The notes below the pieces were generated by a model. That model ran no database searches, was not told where the DNA came from, and was given only the letters and a program-made list of their open reading frames with translations. A DNA stretch of 10,725 bases from a virus: UHGV virus genome UHGV-0134920; one strand, written 5' to 3'. Positions 3,035 to 10,725 of the stretch are shown here, one piece after another (positions within the stretch are counted from its first letter, which is position 1; every line of letters starts with the position of its first letter). Made by a program: the position numbers and the translations under genes.

Positions 3035-3488
3035 AAACCGCTTGCAAAAAATTATCACGGGGCTGTATGCTTCCCCCGTCGCCCACATGGCGACCGGGTT
3101 TAGCAGCCTGAATACATCTGGCGGACAGCCGCCCACATCCGATAAGCGGTTTTTTTGTGTCCGTAAACCTACCCATACCCGCATTATGGCGGGGCGTAAC
3201 GGGGGAGCCTTTGTGCTCGCTGGTTTCCAGATGACCAGTCTGCTAACCCTGTTACGTCTCGCCACCATGTTTAGCAGCGTAGTAGCGAGACTCCTTAAAA
3301 TTCATCTGGGAGCCTTTCACATGGCTGTATTCGCACGCCCTTATTTTGTCTGGCGCTTTATGCAGTGCCTGACAGACAGTATTGCAATATTCACCGTTAC
3401 CGCTGCCACTGAGCGCGAAGCACGTGCACAGCTGCCGCACGCACATCTGATTTTTGTCGCCCGTATTCGTCAGGGGGTAGGCTTATGA
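3027..3488 (+). CDS. Ash-family-like protein with C-terminal Icd-like module
   Basis: ATG at 3027 overlaps the upstream stop by 8 nt. C-terminal ~55 aa (YFVWRFMQ...TEREARAQ...ARIRQG) are paralogous to the preceding 65-aa protein. An internal start near 3321 (MAVFARPYFVWRF) cannot be excluded. Stop overlaps the next start (ATGA at 3485-3488). Confidence 0.55.
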   Translation: MRKNRLQKIITGLYASPVAHMATGFSSLNTSGGQPPTSDKRFFCVRKPTHTRIMAGRNGGAFVLAGFQMTSLLTLLRLATMFSSVVARLLKIHLGAFHMAVFARPYFVWRFMQCLTDSIAIFTVTAATEREARAQLPHAHLIFVARIRQGVGL

Positions 3489-4460: not shown

Positions 4461-6205
4461 AACTGGCACCGAACGTAAAAAAACAGCCACGCGGAATAAA
4501 ACACAAAGACACAGAGGTAATTATTTTCGCGGGTAGTGATGCCTGGTCGCACGCGAAACAATGGCAGGAGCAGGATGGCCCCGCATCCGGCGATAATGTG
4601 CCGCCTGTGTGGCTTGGGCCAAATCAGCTTGCCGAACTTGATGCACTGAAAATTGTTCCGGATGGAAAAAAACGCGTAAGGCTGTACCAGGCCGGAGAAC
4701 TGGATTTGGTGGAGACCAAAAAGATTGGTCAGAAGCTGGCGGCGGCAGATATTCAGGACGCAAATTTTTACCCCGAAGGAATGCACGTCCAGAAGTGTGA
4801 AAACTGGCGGCGCTATCTGAATGCTGAGCGTGAAAATATTGCCGCAGGGCTTACCATGCCGGAGCAGAAAAATACGCAACTGGCACAAATGGCAGACAGT
4901 GAGCGCGCACAGATGCTTGCTGGTCGATTTGATGGCGTTTGTGTGCATCCGGAAAGTGAAATCGTTCACGTATGGCGCGGCGGGGTATGGTGTCCGGTCA
5001 GCACAATGGAACTTAGCCGCGAAATGGTGGCGATCTATTCAGAGCACAGGGCCACTTTCAGCAAGCGCGTAATCAATAACGCCGTGGAAGCGTTAAAAGT
5101 TATTGCCGAACCAATGGGCGAGCCGTCCGGCGATTTGCTGCCGTTCGCCAATGGTGCGCTTGACCTGAAAACGGGGGAATTTTCCCCGCACACGCCGGAG
5201 AACTGGATCACCACGCACAACGGCATTGAGTACACGCCACCAGCACCAGGGGAGAATATCTGCGACAACGCGCCAAACTTTCATAAATGGCTTGAGCACG
5301 CAGCCGGAAAAGACCCGCGCAAGATGATGCGTATATGTGCCGCGCTGTACATGATTATGGCGAACCGGTACGACTGGCAGATGTTTATTGAGGCCACCGG
5401 AGACGGCGGGAGCGGCAAAAGTACATTCACCCACATCGCCAGCCTTTTAGCGGGGAAACAAAACACGGTAAGCGCGGAAATGACATCGCTTGATGATGCT
5501 GGTGGGCGTGCGCAGGTTGTCGGGAGTCGTCTTATCGTCCTGGCAGACCAGCCGAAATATACAGGCGAAGGCACGGGCATCAAGAAAATCACGGGCGGCG
5601 ACCCCGTGGAAATCAACCCGAAATATGAAAAGCGTTTCACTACGGTAATCAGGGCGGTGGTGCTGGCGACCAATAACAACCCGATGATATTCACCGAACG
5701 GGCCGGAGGCGTGTCACGTCGTCGGGTTATTTTCCGCTTCGACAATATCGTAAGCGAGGCAGAAAAAGACAGGGAGCTACCGGAAAAGATCGCGGCTGAA
5801 ATCCCAGTCATTATCCGCCGCTTGCTGGCGAACTTTACCGACCCTGAGAAGGCACGGGCTTTACTACTGGAACAGCGTGACGGTGATGAAGCTCTGGCAA
5901 TAAAGCAACAGACGGATCCGGTTATTGAGTTTTGCCAGTTCCTGAATTTTCTGGAGGAAGCGCGCGGCCTGATGATGGGTGGCGGTGGCGATTCAGTGAA
6001 GTACACGACCAGGAACAGCCTTTACCGCGTCTATCTGGCGTTTATGGCATACGCCGGAAGGAACAAGCCGCTAAACGTGGCTGAGTTCAGCAAAGCTATG
6101 AAGCCAGCGGCGAAAGTTTACGGGCATGAATATATTACGCGGAAAGTCAATGGAGTTACGCAGACTAACGCAATAACAACAGACGATTGCGACGCGTTTT
6201 TATAA
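4457..6205 (+). CDS. replication initiator, P4 alpha C-terminal-like SF3 helicase/NTPase (primase-helicase family)
   Basis: 582 aa; Walker A GDGGSGKST, Walker B-like RLIVLADQP and SF3 motif C VVLATNNNP. Followed immediately by an iteron array. A catalytic primase (toprim/AEP) domain cannot be confirmed by eye. Confidence 0.85.
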   Translation: MKLAPNVKKQPRGIKHKDTEVIIFAGSDAWSHAKQWQEQDGPASGDNVPPVWLGPNQLAELDALKIVPDGKKRVRLYQAGELDLVETKKIGQKLAAADIQDANFYPEGMHVQKCENWRRYLNAERENIAAGLTMPEQKNTQLAQMADSERAQMLAGRFDGVCVHPESEIVHVWRGGVWCPVSTMELSREMVAIYSEHRATFSKRVINNAVEALKVIAEPMGEPSGDLLPFANGALDLKTGEFSPHTPENWITTHNGIEYTPPAPGENICDNAPNFHKWLEHAAGKDPRKMMRICAALYMIMANRYDWQMFIEATGDGGSGKSTFTHIASLLAGKQNTVSAEMTSLDDAGGRAQVVGSRLIVLADQPKYTGEGTGIKKITGGDPVEINPKYEKRFTTVIRAVVLATNNNPMIFTERAGGVSRRRVIFRFDNIVSEAEKDRELPEKIAAEIPVIIRRLLANFTDPEKARALLLEQRDGDEALAIKQQTDPVIEFCQFLNFLEEARGLMMGGGGDSVKYTTRNSLYRVYLAFMAYAGRNKPLNVAEFSKAMKPAAKVYGHEYITRKVNGVTQTNAITTDDCDAFL

Positions 6206-7472: not shown

Positions 7473-7495
7473 GAATACCAGAACCACACCACACA

Positions 7496-7518
7496 GCCGG
7501 AGCAATCCGGCTTTTTTG
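7496..7518 (+). terminator. rho-independent terminator (first of two)
   Basis: GCCGG-agcaat-CCGGC hairpin followed by TTTTTTG. Confidence 0.5.
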
Positions 7519-7641: not shown

Positions 7642-7696
7642 ATTGCACAAAATGCAATCATGATTATAATCATAACTGGATGAACATCCAGTTATG
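7642..7696 (+). promoter_or_regulatory. candidate sigma70-type promoter of the head operon overlapped by palindromic operator-like sites
   Basis: -35-like TTGCAC (7643-7648), 16-nt spacer, consensus -10 TATAAT (7665-7670). Palindromes ATTGCA-caaaa-TGCAAT (7642-7658), TGATTATAATCA (7661-7672) and perfect 12-bp arms CATAACTGGATG-aa-CATCCAGTTATG (7671-7696). Confidence 0.5.
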
Positions 7697-7726
7697 ATTT
7701 TTTAAGTCAAAGAGGAATTTCTTACT

Positions 7727-7933
7727 ATGGCTGAAGAGAAAAAAGGCGGTGTTTCGGTGTACATAAGCCCCGACATCGTGAAGGCGCTCAAGGAACGCCA
7801 CCAGCAGAACGTAAAAGCAGGCATTGCGGCAGGACTTGATCCGCTGGCGATGGTTGAGCCGTCAACAGGCTGGCAGGTACGCGCCTATTTACGCGCGGCG
7901 CTGGGTATGAATCAGGTTCACGGGGGTGAATAA
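7727..7933 (+). CDS. hypothetical protein (68 aa), first gene of the head operon
   Basis: AGAGGA RBS at 7711-7716; stop TAA overlaps the capsid gene ATG (7931-7935). Confidence 0.5.
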   Translation: MAEEKKGGVSVYISPDIVKALKERHQQNVKAGIAAGLDPLAMVEPSTGWQVRAYLRAALGMNQVHGGE

Positions 7934-8988
7934 TGACAGTAAAAGCAATAGCACTTAACACTAACCAGCTTTTTGCGTACCTGAATCGCGAGGATATTGC
8001 GGAATTTAAATTCAGTCCGCTGTTTACCGCGCTGTTTTTCCCGAACGTGGCGACATTCAACACACAGGACATCATGTTAGATAACCTGGATATTGAAGAA
8101 GTCACTATGTCGGCGTTTTGTTCGCCTATGGTGGGTAGCCAGGTTCAGCGCGATAAAGGGTACGAAACAAGCATTATTCGCCCTGGCTACATGAAGCCAA
8201 AACACGAAATCGATCCATTAAAAACAATAATGCGCATGGCTGGAGAAGATCCAGCACAGCTTAACGACCCTACCTACCGCCGTATGCGCCTGATTACTGG
8301 CAACATGCGCCGCCAGATAAACGCCATTAAAGCGCGCGAGGAATGGCTGGCGGTAAATGCGGTAACGACCGGAAAAAACATCATTGAGGGCGAAGGCATA
8401 GAGCGCTATGAAATCGACTGGAAGATACCGGAAAAAAACATCATAGAGCAGGCCGACGGTAAAAAATGGTCAGAGCAGGACAAAGACATACACGACCCAA
8501 TCTATGACATTGAGCTATACGCAGATCAGGCAGGTTGCCCCGCAAACGTCATGATTATGGGCGTTGATGTATGGCGCATGTTACGCAGCTTTAAAAAATT
8601 CCGTGAACTGTACGATCTCTCCCGTGGTTCAGAATCCGCCGCAGAGCTGGCATGTAAAAACCTGGGCGAAGTGGTGAGCTTTAAAGGCTATCTTGGTGAT
8701 CTGGCCCTTATCGTCTATTCCGGCAAATACACTGACAGCGACGGCACAGAAAAATATTTCCTTGAGCCTGATTTGCTGGTCCTGGGCAACACCAACAATA
8801 AAGGGCTGGTGGCCTATGGTGCGATTATGGAACAGGAAGCGGTAAGAACGGGCGCAACGCAAAACATGTTTTACCCGAAAAACTGGATTGAGGACGGCGA
8901 TCCGGCGATTGAGTACGTGCAGACGCACAGCGCACCGCAGCCGGTTCCGGCAGATATTCGCAAATTTGTTACCGTCAAAATTGGTTAA
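7933..8988 (+). CDS. major capsid protein, lambda gpE family
   Basis: 351 aa; colinear similarity to lambda gpE as recalled (FKFSPLF..LFF; RPGYMKPKHEIDP; EDPAQLNDPTYRRMRLITGNMR; KGYLGDLALIVYSGKY; VLGNT; YPKNW; SAPQPVPAD). Confidence 0.9.
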   Translation: MTVKAIALNTNQLFAYLNREDIAEFKFSPLFTALFFPNVATFNTQDIMLDNLDIEEVTMSAFCSPMVGSQVQRDKGYETSIIRPGYMKPKHEIDPLKTIMRMAGEDPAQLNDPTYRRMRLITGNMRRQINAIKAREEWLAVNAVTTGKNIIEGEGIERYEIDWKIPEKNIIEQADGKKWSEQDKDIHDPIYDIELYADQAGCPANVMIMGVDVWRMLRSFKKFRELYDLSRGSESAAELACKNLGEVVSFKGYLGDLALIVYSGKYTDSDGTEKYFLEPDLLVLGNTNNKGLVAYGAIMEQEAVRTGATQNMFYPKNWIEDGDPAIEYVQTHSAPQPVPADIRKFVTVKIG

Positions 8989-9000
8989 CGGGGGGATTCT

Positions 9001-9336
9001 ATGGACACTCCATACATTGAGTTATTTGCAGGCAGTCAGCAGGTATCCACGACGCTGGTACATTTTGCCGCTGATGCTGGCGTTATTCAGGAATTTACCC
9101 CGCTGATGCTGGCGGACAATGGCGAGTTTAAGCCGTGGGATGGTCAGGAATCTGGCAAGGCTGTTTATCTGACTTCGTACCCCGTGGACACGTCAAAGCA
9201 GAAATCAGCACAGTGTTACAAGACGGGGATATTTAATATCGCCGCCGTAAACTGGCCTGAGAGCGCCGACACTGACGCGAAAAAATGCGCCGCCTTTGCG
9301 GGTTCTGGCGTATCCGTTCAGCCGCTGGCGCGATAA
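9001..9336 (+). CDS. head decoration protein, lambda gpD family
   Basis: 111 aa; matches to lambda gpD as recalled (TPLMLAD, KPWDG, YKTGIFN, WPESADTDAKKCAAFAGSG). Confidence 0.85.
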   Translation: MDTPYIELFAGSQQVSTTLVHFAADAGVIQEFTPLMLADNGEFKPWDGQESGKAVYLTSYPVDTSKQKSAQCYKTGIFNIAAVNWPESADTDAKKCAAFAGSGVSVQPLAR

Positions 9337-9348
9337 GCAGGGGAAACG

Positions 9349-9762
9349 ATGGCAACGAATGAAAGCATCATGGCGCTACCGCTGGCGAGTAAATTTAAAG
9401 CAGAAGCGCGGGCAATGGCTGACAGAGGTTTATCAACCTACGAGGCCGTATATCAACTCAACAAACTGGAAGAACAGGACAAGCCGCGCGCTGATGCGAT
9501 TATGGCGCTTCATGAGCATAAAGACTATCAGCCGCTGTTACGTGCAATGGCAAACGTGCCATGTATTAGCGTCGATAATGCTCGTGAAATCCTGAACATG
9601 ACCATAGAGCAGGAGCGCCCAAAGGTTGCACCAGAGCTTACCGCAGCCTTTGAAAACTTTATGGACATGCACAGCCCGCAAGCCGTATCAGCTGGCATGG
9701 CGTACGATGGCAGAAACCAGGGCGATGACGGCGACATCGATCGCATACTGAAAACCATCTGA
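9349..9762 (+). CDS. hypothetical protein (137 aa), last gene of the head operon
   Basis: CAGGGGAAA RBS-like sequence upstream of ATG 9349; acidic; followed by a strong terminator; no recognisable family. Confidence 0.55.
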   Translation: MATNESIMALPLASKFKAEARAMADRGLSTYEAVYQLNKLEEQDKPRADAIMALHEHKDYQPLLRAMANVPCISVDNAREILNMTIEQERPKVAPELTAAFENFMDMHSPQAVSAGMAYDGRNQGDDGDIDRILKTI

Positions 9763-9768
9763 GACAAG

Positions 9769-9792
9769 GCCGGAGAAATCCGGCTTTTTTTT
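9769..9792 (+). terminator. rho-independent terminator
   Basis: GCCGGA-gaaa-TCCGGC hairpin followed by T8 (9785-9792). Confidence 0.8.
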
Positions 9793-9824
9793 ACGGGTCC
9801 TTTCCGGCATATGGACCCGTTACG

Positions 9825-9858
9825 GGGCGGCGACCTCGCGGTTTTTCGCTATTTATGA
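9825..9858. other. lambda-type cos site (cosN core plus conserved flank)
   Basis: GGGCGGCGACCT at 9825-9836 equals the lambda 12-nt cohesive end as recalled. The next 22 nt CGCGGTTTTTCGCTATTTATGA (9837-9858) differ from the recalled lambda left-end CGCGGGTTTTCGCTATTTATGA at one position. Lies ~135 bp upstream of a Nu1-like gene, as in lambda. Confidence 0.7.
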
Positions 9859-9930
9859 GCCTTTTCAGGGGGGTGGTGGTGGTTTTGTTGTTTGCTCTAT
9901 CTTTATGAATGAAAAGGGAAAGATGCAAAC

Positions 9931-9968
9931 AATACACCAACCTGAAGCAGTAATTAAGTTGGTGTATT
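9931..9968. promoter_or_regulatory. 11-bp perfect inverted repeat abutting the terS start (candidate cosB/TerS-binding or translational control element)
   Basis: AATACACCAAC (9931-9941) and GTTGGTGTATT (9958-9968) separated by 16 nt; ends 1 nt before the ATG at 9970. Confidence 0.4.
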
Positions 9969-9969
9969 A

Positions 9970-10512
9970 ATGAAATCGCACCTGATGAACAAAAAAAACA
10001 TGGCGAAAAGCTGCCGTGTAAGTGCGACAGCGTTCGACAAGTGGGGAGTGACTCCCGTTGAACGTAAAGGCCGTGAGGCGTTTTACGATGTTGCCAGCGT
10101 GATAGACAATAGGGTTAACAATGCAATTAGCCAGCTTACAAACGACAAAGGCGATATTGATGATGATGAACTCTTACGAGTCAGGATCAGATTACTGACA
10201 GCACAGGCGGAGGCGCAGGAACTTAAAAACGAGCGCGATCGCGGTGACGTGATCGATACTGAGTTTTGCCTGTACGCGCTTTCAAAGCTGGCGAGTCAGA
10301 TTTCATCAATCATGGACAGCCTCCCGCTTACTATGCAAAGGAGCTTCCCACAGATTACCCCCGCCATGCTGGATAGGCTTAAAAGGGAAGTGGTTAAAGC
10401 CTGTAATGCCAGTGCCAGAGTTGCCGACAACCTCCCACAGATACTGGCTGATTACTTGAAAGAAACAACCGGAAACGTACCGGAAAAGTTGCAGCCGAAT
10501 AAAGATAAGTAA
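9970..10512 (+). CDS. terS: terminase small subunit, lambda Nu1-like with divergent N-terminal DNA-binding domain
   Basis: 180 aa (alternative start ATG 9985, MNKKN..., aligns better with the Nu1 N-terminus MEVNKKQ). C-terminal two thirds are similar to lambda Nu1 as recalled (RLLTAQAEAQELKNERDRGDVIDTEFCLYALSKLASQISSIMDSLPLTMQRSFPQ versus RLTRAQADAQELKNARDSAEVVETAFCTFVLSRIAGEIASILDGLPLSVQRRFPE). N-terminal ~55 aa are much less conserved. Confidence 0.8.
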   Translation: MKSHLMNKKNMAKSCRVSATAFDKWGVTPVERKGREAFYDVASVIDNRVNNAISQLTNDKGDIDDDELLRVRIRLLTAQAEAQELKNERDRGDVIDTEFCLYALSKLASQISSIMDSLPLTMQRSFPQITPAMLDRLKREVVKACNASARVADNLPQILADYLKETTGNVPEKLQPNKDK

Positions 10513-10523
10513 CGTAGTACGCT

Positions 10524-10725
10524 ATGACTGAATCCGAAATACTGCGATTAATCCGCCGCGTCTCTGGAATCAGCCAGCAGGCTGACGAACAGACCACGCA
10601 GCCGGACAGCGTGACAGCCGAAAACTATGCGCGTGTTGTTGCTGAGGTGATGCGCCGTGATGGTATAGAACTTAATGGCGTGGATATGCGCAACATACGA
10701 ACCAGAGTTCTTGAGTTGCTGGCCT
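10524..10725 (+). CDS. hypothetical protein, 5' partial (runs off the window)
   Basis: ATG at 10524, 12 nt after the terS stop; open to the window end (MTESEILRLIRRVSGISQQADEQ...). No resemblance to the lambda gpA N-terminus as recalled. Confidence 0.45.
   Translation, partial: MTESEILRLIRRVSGISQQADEQTTQPDSVTAENYARVVAEVMRRDGIELNGVDMRNIRTRVLELLA

Follow-up and report, generated by a model that had tools for sequence, protein, structure and literature searches.

The closest described systems are EcCICFT073, a phage-inducible chromosomal island (PICI) of E. coli CFT073, and EcCIEDL933 (CP-933C), a capsid-forming PICI (cf-PICI). Of the EcCICFT073 genes located after ori, each cloned in pBAD18 and expressed, c1503 (rppA) was the only one to inhibit lambda; the set of clones included c1505, which is thus among the non-inhibitors (PMC6739421). 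The N-terminal DNA-binding domain of Rpp acts as a mimic of that of TerS (PMC6739421). In the transfer assays made with this island, the derivative c1504-07::cat (strain JP13413) is called 'wt' and serves as the reference (PMC10530653). Fillol-Salom et al. 2018 (PMC6092414) had already pointed out that some E. coli PICIs encode a TerS. EcCIEDL933 makes its own capsids and terminase, and all mutants of its packaging module abolish transfer, except for 'hypothetical gene 1792', where transfer is severely reduced.

We analysed a stretch of 10,725 nt of viral DNA (UHGV-0134920, hereafter the window), and especially its last ORF, orf93. As judged from the sequence, the element in the window is a Gram-negative PICI. 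In such islands the genes of int, alpA and a primase point the same way, a cos/packaging module follows the replication genes, and tail and lysis genes are missing. The window encodes an integrase of the tyrosine type, AlpA, a D5/P4-type primase, PerC, capsid protein E, decoration protein D, Nu1 and a cos, all recognised from sequence alone, and we found no tail or lysis gene in its 10,725 nt. An SSB was assigned via the annotation of relatives. The morphogenesis genes are of the lambda type and all on the + strand. They include a gpE-like major capsid protein (7933..8988; Pfam Phage_cap_E, E 1e-49; 46% identity with the capsid protein of a lambdoid prophage), a gpD-like head decoration protein (9001..9336; Pfam HDPD, E 1e-17), and a 137-aa protein of the c1501 family (9349..9762; phrog_1999) that is related to the C-terminus of gpC. 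The latter is similar to lambdoid S49 peptidases, i.e., it matches residues 416-493 of a gpC-type S49 protease (the Nu3 scaffold-like region; 39%, E 3e-11) and positions 494-567 of the 583 of phrog_53. The island seems, from these matches, to encode capsid, decoration and scaffold-like proteins, and neither portal nor protease.

The packaging region follows. A lambda-type cos (9793..9868, + strand), comprising cosQ, cosN and the start of cosB, was identified by alignment with the cos of a CFT073 lambdoid prophage and with cos1 and cos2 of EcCICFT073. It contains the exact cohesive-end 12-mer GGGCGGCGACCT at 9825-9836. Next comes a TerS of 180 aa (9970..10512, + strand), which is Nu1-like, as the preliminary description had it (Pfam Phage_Nu1, E 2.3e-23; phrog_57, E 2.9e-53), and 33% identical to the Nu1 homologue of a CFT073 lambdoid prophage. 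Since the island has a cos and its own TerS but no TerL, it must use the gpA-like TerL of a helper phage. This type of TerS-encoding island therefore depends on the helper's TerL.

Some other features of the window deserve mention. Its cos is single and located upstream of terS, and many relatives, including EcCICFT073, have a second, inverted cos in a spacer of 255-300 bp that runs from terS or rppA to orf93 (e.g., L002:12793-12804 and L004:23298-23309, both on the - strand). The sequence GGGCGGCGACCC at 5593-5604 (+ strand), inside the primase gene, has one mismatch to the cosN 12-mer and is probably there by chance. Three terminator-like hairpins lie on the + strand, at 7495-7512 after PerC, at 7668-7699 before the capsid genes, and at 9766-9787, the last one with a T-run and placed between the capsid genes and cos/terS. 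Their presence in a rightward operon suggests that the expression of the late genes needs read-through or separate promoters. A C4 antisense RNA (Rfam RF01695) was matched at 3182-3269 (+ strand) with 72.7 bits (gathering score 45), and the ORFs downstream of it are annotated in relatives as Icd-like cell-division inhibitors, an arrangement that resembles the c4-icd immunity-like module of P1/P7.

The preliminary description reported that another ORF starts 12 nt after terS and is truncated by the window, and our analysis agrees with it. The stop codon TAA of terS (10510-10512) and the ATG of orf93 (10524-10526) are separated by 11 nt, the ATG beginning at the twelfth base. No earlier start is possible, as a TAG lies in frame at 10515-10517. 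From the ATG on, 67 codons remain open up to the end of the window (10524..10725, + strand), with the translation MTESEILRLIRRVSGISQQADEQTTQPDSVTAENYARVVAEVMRRDGIELNGVDMRNIRTRVLELLA. In the relatives that we opened, the complete gene has 93 codons, and full-length orthologues are found at L001:12625-12906, L002:12869-13150, L004:23374-23655 (c1505 of EcCICFT073), and L091:14480-14761 (WP_000133425.1 of EcCIEDL933). The translated part is the same as the 93-aa protein P0041 in 66 of the 67 residues, as the L001 orthologue in 61 of the 67, and as c1505, itself 93 aa long, in 58 of the 67 (about 87%). The primers listed in Table S5 of PMC6739421 place the insert of pBAD18-c1505 at L004:23317-23690, which identifies the orthologue as c1505. 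The last 26 residues and the repeats that follow the gene are outside the window, and what we say about them is drawn from relatives. From these, one would expect 26 more codons past the window, a protein tail ...YxWKKPERLRR, and then a TAA that opens TAACNGGTTGAT. Behind it there would be non-coding DNA with many hairpins, over several hundred bp to about 1.2 kb, followed by attR and the chromosome (on the yejO or tRNA-Pro side, provided that the integrase match to L010 holds), and no TerL.

The gene occupies the right end of these islands. It is the final annotated gene before the chromosome in L001, L002 and L010. The L001 island, which has 95% nucleotide identity to the window, is integrated between yljB/cspD and clpS, the L002 island adjoins tRNA-Ile/mug, and the L010 island, whose integrase is the same as that of the window, is between tRNA-Pro/yejM and yejO. 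The islands of these relatives have ~11 kb, and the att repeats that bound them are about 11.3 kb apart. In L001 the core att repeats are at 2844-2864 and 14120-14140, and arm-type repeats lie close to each end. Hence, orf93 ends about 1.2 kb before attR.

In lambda, the gene at this position encodes gpA. The preliminary description stated that the N-terminus of the ORF does not resemble gpA, and proposed to compare the complete protein with the families of TerL, HNH endonucleases and Rpp. We made these comparisons with the complete orthologues, and none of the families matched. TerL proteins are ~550-650 aa long and combine two domains, a Walker A/B ATPase at the N-terminus and an RNase H-like nuclease at the C-terminus. 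The product of orf93 has 93 aa and lacks both domains, it has no Pfam match (E up to 1), be it to TerL of the lambda gpA or of the HK97 Terminase_1 type, and hhalign gave a probability of 0.04% for its relation to the gpA-like TerL of a CFT073 lambdoid prophage. It shares with lambda gpA and the lambdoid TerL (~640 aa) just the map position, i.e., after Nu1 and to the right of cos. Furthermore, in cf-PICIs it is encoded by a separate gene behind a real TerL. HNH endonucleases have a beta-beta-alpha-metal fold, an H-N-H motif, and usually Cys/His zinc ligands. The single His of orf93, the absence of Cys and the all-helical model (see below) argue that it is not such a nuclease. None of 19 family members had a Pfam match, and cf-PICIs carry a separate HNH gene.

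Rpp (redirecting phage packaging) proteins have 144-153 aa, an N-terminal DNA-binding domain that mimics TerS and a C-terminal dimerisation region, and they block lambda when expressed. Like orf93, RppA and RppC are small proteins encoded by Gram-negative PICIs, and they share its gene neighbourhood. Yet, Rpp occupies the position of terS whereas orf93 lies downstream, and lambda is blocked by Rpp but reportedly not by the c1505 clone. Together with the length of 93 aa and a probability of 0.1% in hhalign against RppA, this led us to reject orf93 as an Rpp.

The ORF is a real gene and not a chance ORF, as can be told from its 969 homologues, from the full-length match to phrog_1561, and from the purifying selection acting on it. 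It belongs, by sequence, to the phrog_1561 / c1505 family: the L001 orthologue matches phrog_1561, a family of unknown function, over residues 1-93 of 93 (E 1.1e-55). The stretch encompassing terS and orf93 (9900-10725, megablast) is present in 1,386 of 5,426 complete E. coli genomes, where the two genes are annotated as 'terminase small subunit' and 'hypothetical protein'. An exhaustive search of 1.84 billion representative proteins gave 37 representatives of orf93, the named ones being from E. coli/Shigella, Citrobacter and Salmonella, i.e., a narrow enterobacterial family, and no annotated distant relative among them. The scan of species-representative genomes found one locus, in Shigella. 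We found no match by tblastn in 50,697 phage genomes, nor with phmmer and the family profile in Pfam, NCBIfam, PADLOC and PDB.

The dN/dS was 0.10-0.30 in nine out of ten pairwise comparisons; the tenth, between the window and L002, gave 0.80 from just seven substitutions. It is very improbable that there is no functional protein at all, i.e., that the ORF is the by-product of conserved DNA or RNA elements or the decayed remnant of a terminase. This reading would account for the lack of a functional annotation anywhere, for a 3' end that overlaps a repeated DNA motif and for a 5' end within a strong predicted hairpin (both described below). However, it fits poorly with the low dN/dS, with the hhalign result against TerL, and with the behaviour of distant homologues. 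Those of differing length keep a complete ORF and the same C-terminal motif down to 43% identity. The Citrobacter homologue, with this identity, retains W-K-K-P-[E/D]-R-L-R through synonymous changes of the codons of the tail (AAG to AAA, CCG to CCA, CGG to AGG, and TTG to CTG).

The junction between the two genes is compact. The 11-nt spacer (10513..10523, + strand), also found in L001, has no obvious Shine-Dalgarno sequence. A predicted RNA stem (10444..10577, + strand) surrounds the stop codon of terS and the start of orf93. It is closed by a perfect inverted repeat of 10 bp, CTGGCTGATT (10444-10453) and AATCAGCCAG (10568-10577), with one arm in the 3' end of terS and the other in codons 15-18 of orf93, and it contains additional helices. 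The RNA of positions 10440-10600 folds with -48.2 kcal/mol (z -4.86, none of 200 shuffles being as stable), and the junctions where orf93 follows TerL or RppA are not so stable (z -0.6 and +0.3). Because the gap is so short, a Shine-Dalgarno is missing and a stable predicted hairpin hides the start codon, orf93 is in this compact form probably made through translational coupling to terS. Both arms of the repeat are invariant in relatives, and the hairpin could also follow from coding constraints on the two arms.

We then scored the upstream neighbour of orf93 in a sample of 80 IMG/VR loci carrying it. The neighbour was a Nu1-like TerS in 30 loci, with gaps of 11 nt (6 loci), 73 nt (3) or 254-256 nt (21), an HK97-type TerL in 27 (gap of 13-14 nt), RppA in 14 (279-299 nt), and none of these in nine. 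Most of the TerS-type spacers of 254-256 nt hold the inverted second cos. The window has the 11-nt form, which is common to 6 of the 30 TerS-type loci, and is thus syntenic with the family in having orf93 directly after a terminase-type gene. The 27 TerL loci are cf-PICIs, e.g., L014 has the order portal, connectors, HNH, P27-type TerS, TerL, orf93, phoQ. EcCIEDL933, the prototype of this type of island, is arranged in the same way. None of the 80 loci encodes a lambda-gpA-like TerL, and the complete orf93 has 93 aa and closes the island, in line with the earlier suggestion that the island lacks a TerL of its own. More divergent homologues are found in islands without recognisable packaging genes, behind an unrelated 153-aa gene in Citrobacter and, in E. 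coli, flanked by PerC and a Q-antiterminator homologue. Hence, a gene that follows TerS, TerL, RppA or none of these is a backbone gene closing the rightward operon, not a surrogate of TerL. The gene after terS is neither a cryptic nor a novel terminase partner, but an already annotated and uncharacterised backbone gene of a known family of satellites. No matter which terminase-related gene comes before it, orf93 ends the rightward morphogenesis/packaging operon in enterobacterial PICIs.

The preliminary description also suggested that the ORF encodes a packaging partner that replaces TerL. This part was not supported: the same protein (at least 85% identical) is encoded 13-14 nt after a true HK97-type TerL in capsid-forming PICIs, after RppA in EcCICFT073, and in islands lacking recognisable packaging genes. 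A generalised version holds that orf93 is a packaging accessory, which would bias the helper's machinery towards the DNA of the island by binding to the cos region, the portal or a component of the terminase. We regard it as unlikely, in spite of several features that speak for it. A TerS, Rpp or TerL is directly upstream of orf93 in 71 of the 80 loci, with a gap of 11-14 nt in the compact TerS form and in every cf-PICI, the gene is absent from bona fide phage genomes, and the invariant tail at the C-terminus is of the kind typical of peptides for protein docking. However, the Nu1-like TerS, RppA and HK97-type TerL with which practically the same protein is associated differ in type from one another, the sequence of orf93 does not co-vary with the type of partner, we detected no similarity between it and its three upstream partners, and some islands with orf93 have none of the three.

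The published work on EcCICFT073 points in the same direction. EcCICFT073 and the window both have the capsid, decoration and 137-aa genes and a cos (cos1 in the former) upstream, with orf93 as the last gene. They differ in the gene before it, which is rppA (144 aa) in EcCICFT073 and a full Nu1-like terS in the window, and in the junction, i.e., a spacer of ~280 bp with the inverted second cos in the former and the 11-nt gap without cos2 in the latter. The recombineering arms of c1504-07::cat map to L004:23075-23103 and L004:24002-24061, which means that the deleted segment is L004:23104-24001. The positions of the arms imply that this island lacks cos2, c1505 and most of the downstream repeats. 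It is nevertheless the transfer-proficient reference, from which it follows that, in the laboratory, transfer by lambda and phi80 does not require c1505. This weighs against orf93 as a replacement of TerL and as a packaging accessory, as does the absence of an effect of c1505 overexpression on lambda. Since the deletion also takes most of the array, any cis-regulatory role would be dispensable under the same conditions. Conversely, because the laboratory 'wild-type' constructs of EcCICFT073 lack orf93, any role it plays would have been missed.

The EcCIEDL933 orthologue has the same family, length and C-terminal motif. It starts 13 nt past an HK97-type TerL that the island itself encodes, and is the final island gene ahead of phoQ; the capsids and terminase of this island are its own, whereas the window encodes just TerS and lambda-type capsid genes. 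Gene 1792 of EcCIEDL933 was considered as a possible orthologue and rejected, because the locus tags probably place it at a 60-aa ORF flanked by HNH and terS, with orf93 at about 1795. The anchors are RS08600, which is EDL933_1767, and EDL933_1785, which is a 74-aa ORF recognised by the 406-nt gap upstream of it when PerC is left unannotated. Gene 1792 is most likely the 60-aa ORF at L091:12159-12341, a position that we infer to within plus or minus one gene. With 1792 placed there, its transfer phenotype does not bear on orf93. The orf68 located upstream of the capsid gene in the window was compared with the 74-aa ORF and found to be unrelated.

Could orf93 be an effector directed at the host or at phages? 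Such a protein would interfere with non-helper phages or modulate the host, and would be a quasi-universal cargo of the right end. The flanks of the packaging modules of PICIs are variable and expected to hold immunity genes (10.1101/2025.02.11.637232), and orf93 is specific to satellites, which is in accordance with this possibility. Yet, it has no match in PADLOC, it belongs to the conserved backbone and not to the variable cargo, and c1505 is among the clones that do not inhibit lambda. We thus consider a role as effector improbable.

Of the full-length relatives of the protein that were aligned, all except one have the tail YxWKKP[E/D]RLRR, and the alignment also shows a conserved helical core. 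The AlphaFold2 model (pLDDT 68) has helices at residues 3-14, 28-45 and 52-82, with a disordered variable linker; a Foldseek search with this model, which is of medium confidence, found nothing with E <0.1 in PDB and BFVD. The front of the protein is acidic and helical, and Arg and Lys abound in the long helix and the C-terminal third.

In relatives, the stop codon TAA of orf93 opens a motif, TAAC[CT]N[GA][CT]TGA (TAACYNGYTGAT), which is found at the stop codon in 43 of the 53 loci with downstream sequence and recurs one to seven times further downstream in a strand-specific way. L001 has four exact copies, against 0.03 expected, and in all fetched loci there are 191 copies on the + strand versus 13 on the - strand. 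Behind each copy lies a hairpin, and the changes in its inner stem are compensatory (CCTCA/TGAGG, CGCC/GGCG, CCCCC/GGGGG). These arrays, all outside the window, are located at L001:12904-13400, L004:23653-23830, L091:14759-15180 and L007:10316-10470, and are conserved in PICIs and cf-PICIs, including EcCIEDL933. The search of the repeat region in Rfam gave no family. We considered whether the TAAC...TGAT repeats are arm sites of the integrase, and rejected it: the arm-type repeats (two copies of GGTGTAGTTAAT) are located elsewhere, and the downstream repeats are conserved across islands with different integrases.

On balance, we think that the ORF in the window is the 5' two-thirds of an orthologue of c1505/WP_000133425, a backbone gene that may have an accessory role in nucleic-acid transactions at the right end of the island, and not a terminase partner. 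Our best guess at its function, tentative and of low confidence, is that of a non-essential accessory or regulatory factor that may bind nucleic acids. This is suggested by the long helix rich in Arg and Lys of the predicted model, the near-invariant tail and the array of motifs and hairpins downstream. Between this role and that of a packaging adaptor, we favour the former, again with low confidence. The likely target would be the conserved array of TAACYNGYTGAT and hairpins that starts, in relatives, at the gene's own stop codon, and binding to it may modulate the fate of transcripts or of DNA at the right end of the island.

Lambda N and HK022 Nun act with nut sites, where a small Arg-rich protein is encoded beside a repeated linear motif and a variable hairpin. 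The architecture of orf93 and its array may be analogous, although the Arg-rich part is C-terminal in orf93, and we take the likeness as a lead and not as a classification. A bolder proposal is that orf93 and the 'TAACYNGYTGAT plus hairpin' array form a previously undescribed regulatory module common to classical and capsid-forming PICIs, to which we give little credence. The Arg-rich C-terminal helix and the WKKPERLRR tail would then bind structured RNA, or single-stranded DNA, and control read-through, stability or priming at the right end, in the direction of the cargo genes and, once the island is excised and circular, through attP into int.

The gene is one of the few conserved PICI genes without an assigned function, and is present in the model islands of both classical PICIs and cf-PICIs. 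Its conserved tail and the structured repeats downstream are the sole unexplained elements, and offer handles for testing what orf93 does. Two further observations concern the region beyond the gene. The downstream array includes a second type of unit, which contains GCGCAAAATTGCGC. In L007 (10738-11130), as well as in L008 and L009, which are PICIs without capsid or terS genes, a Q-antiterminator homologue (PF06530) is encoded a few hundred bp past the orf93 homologue and its array.
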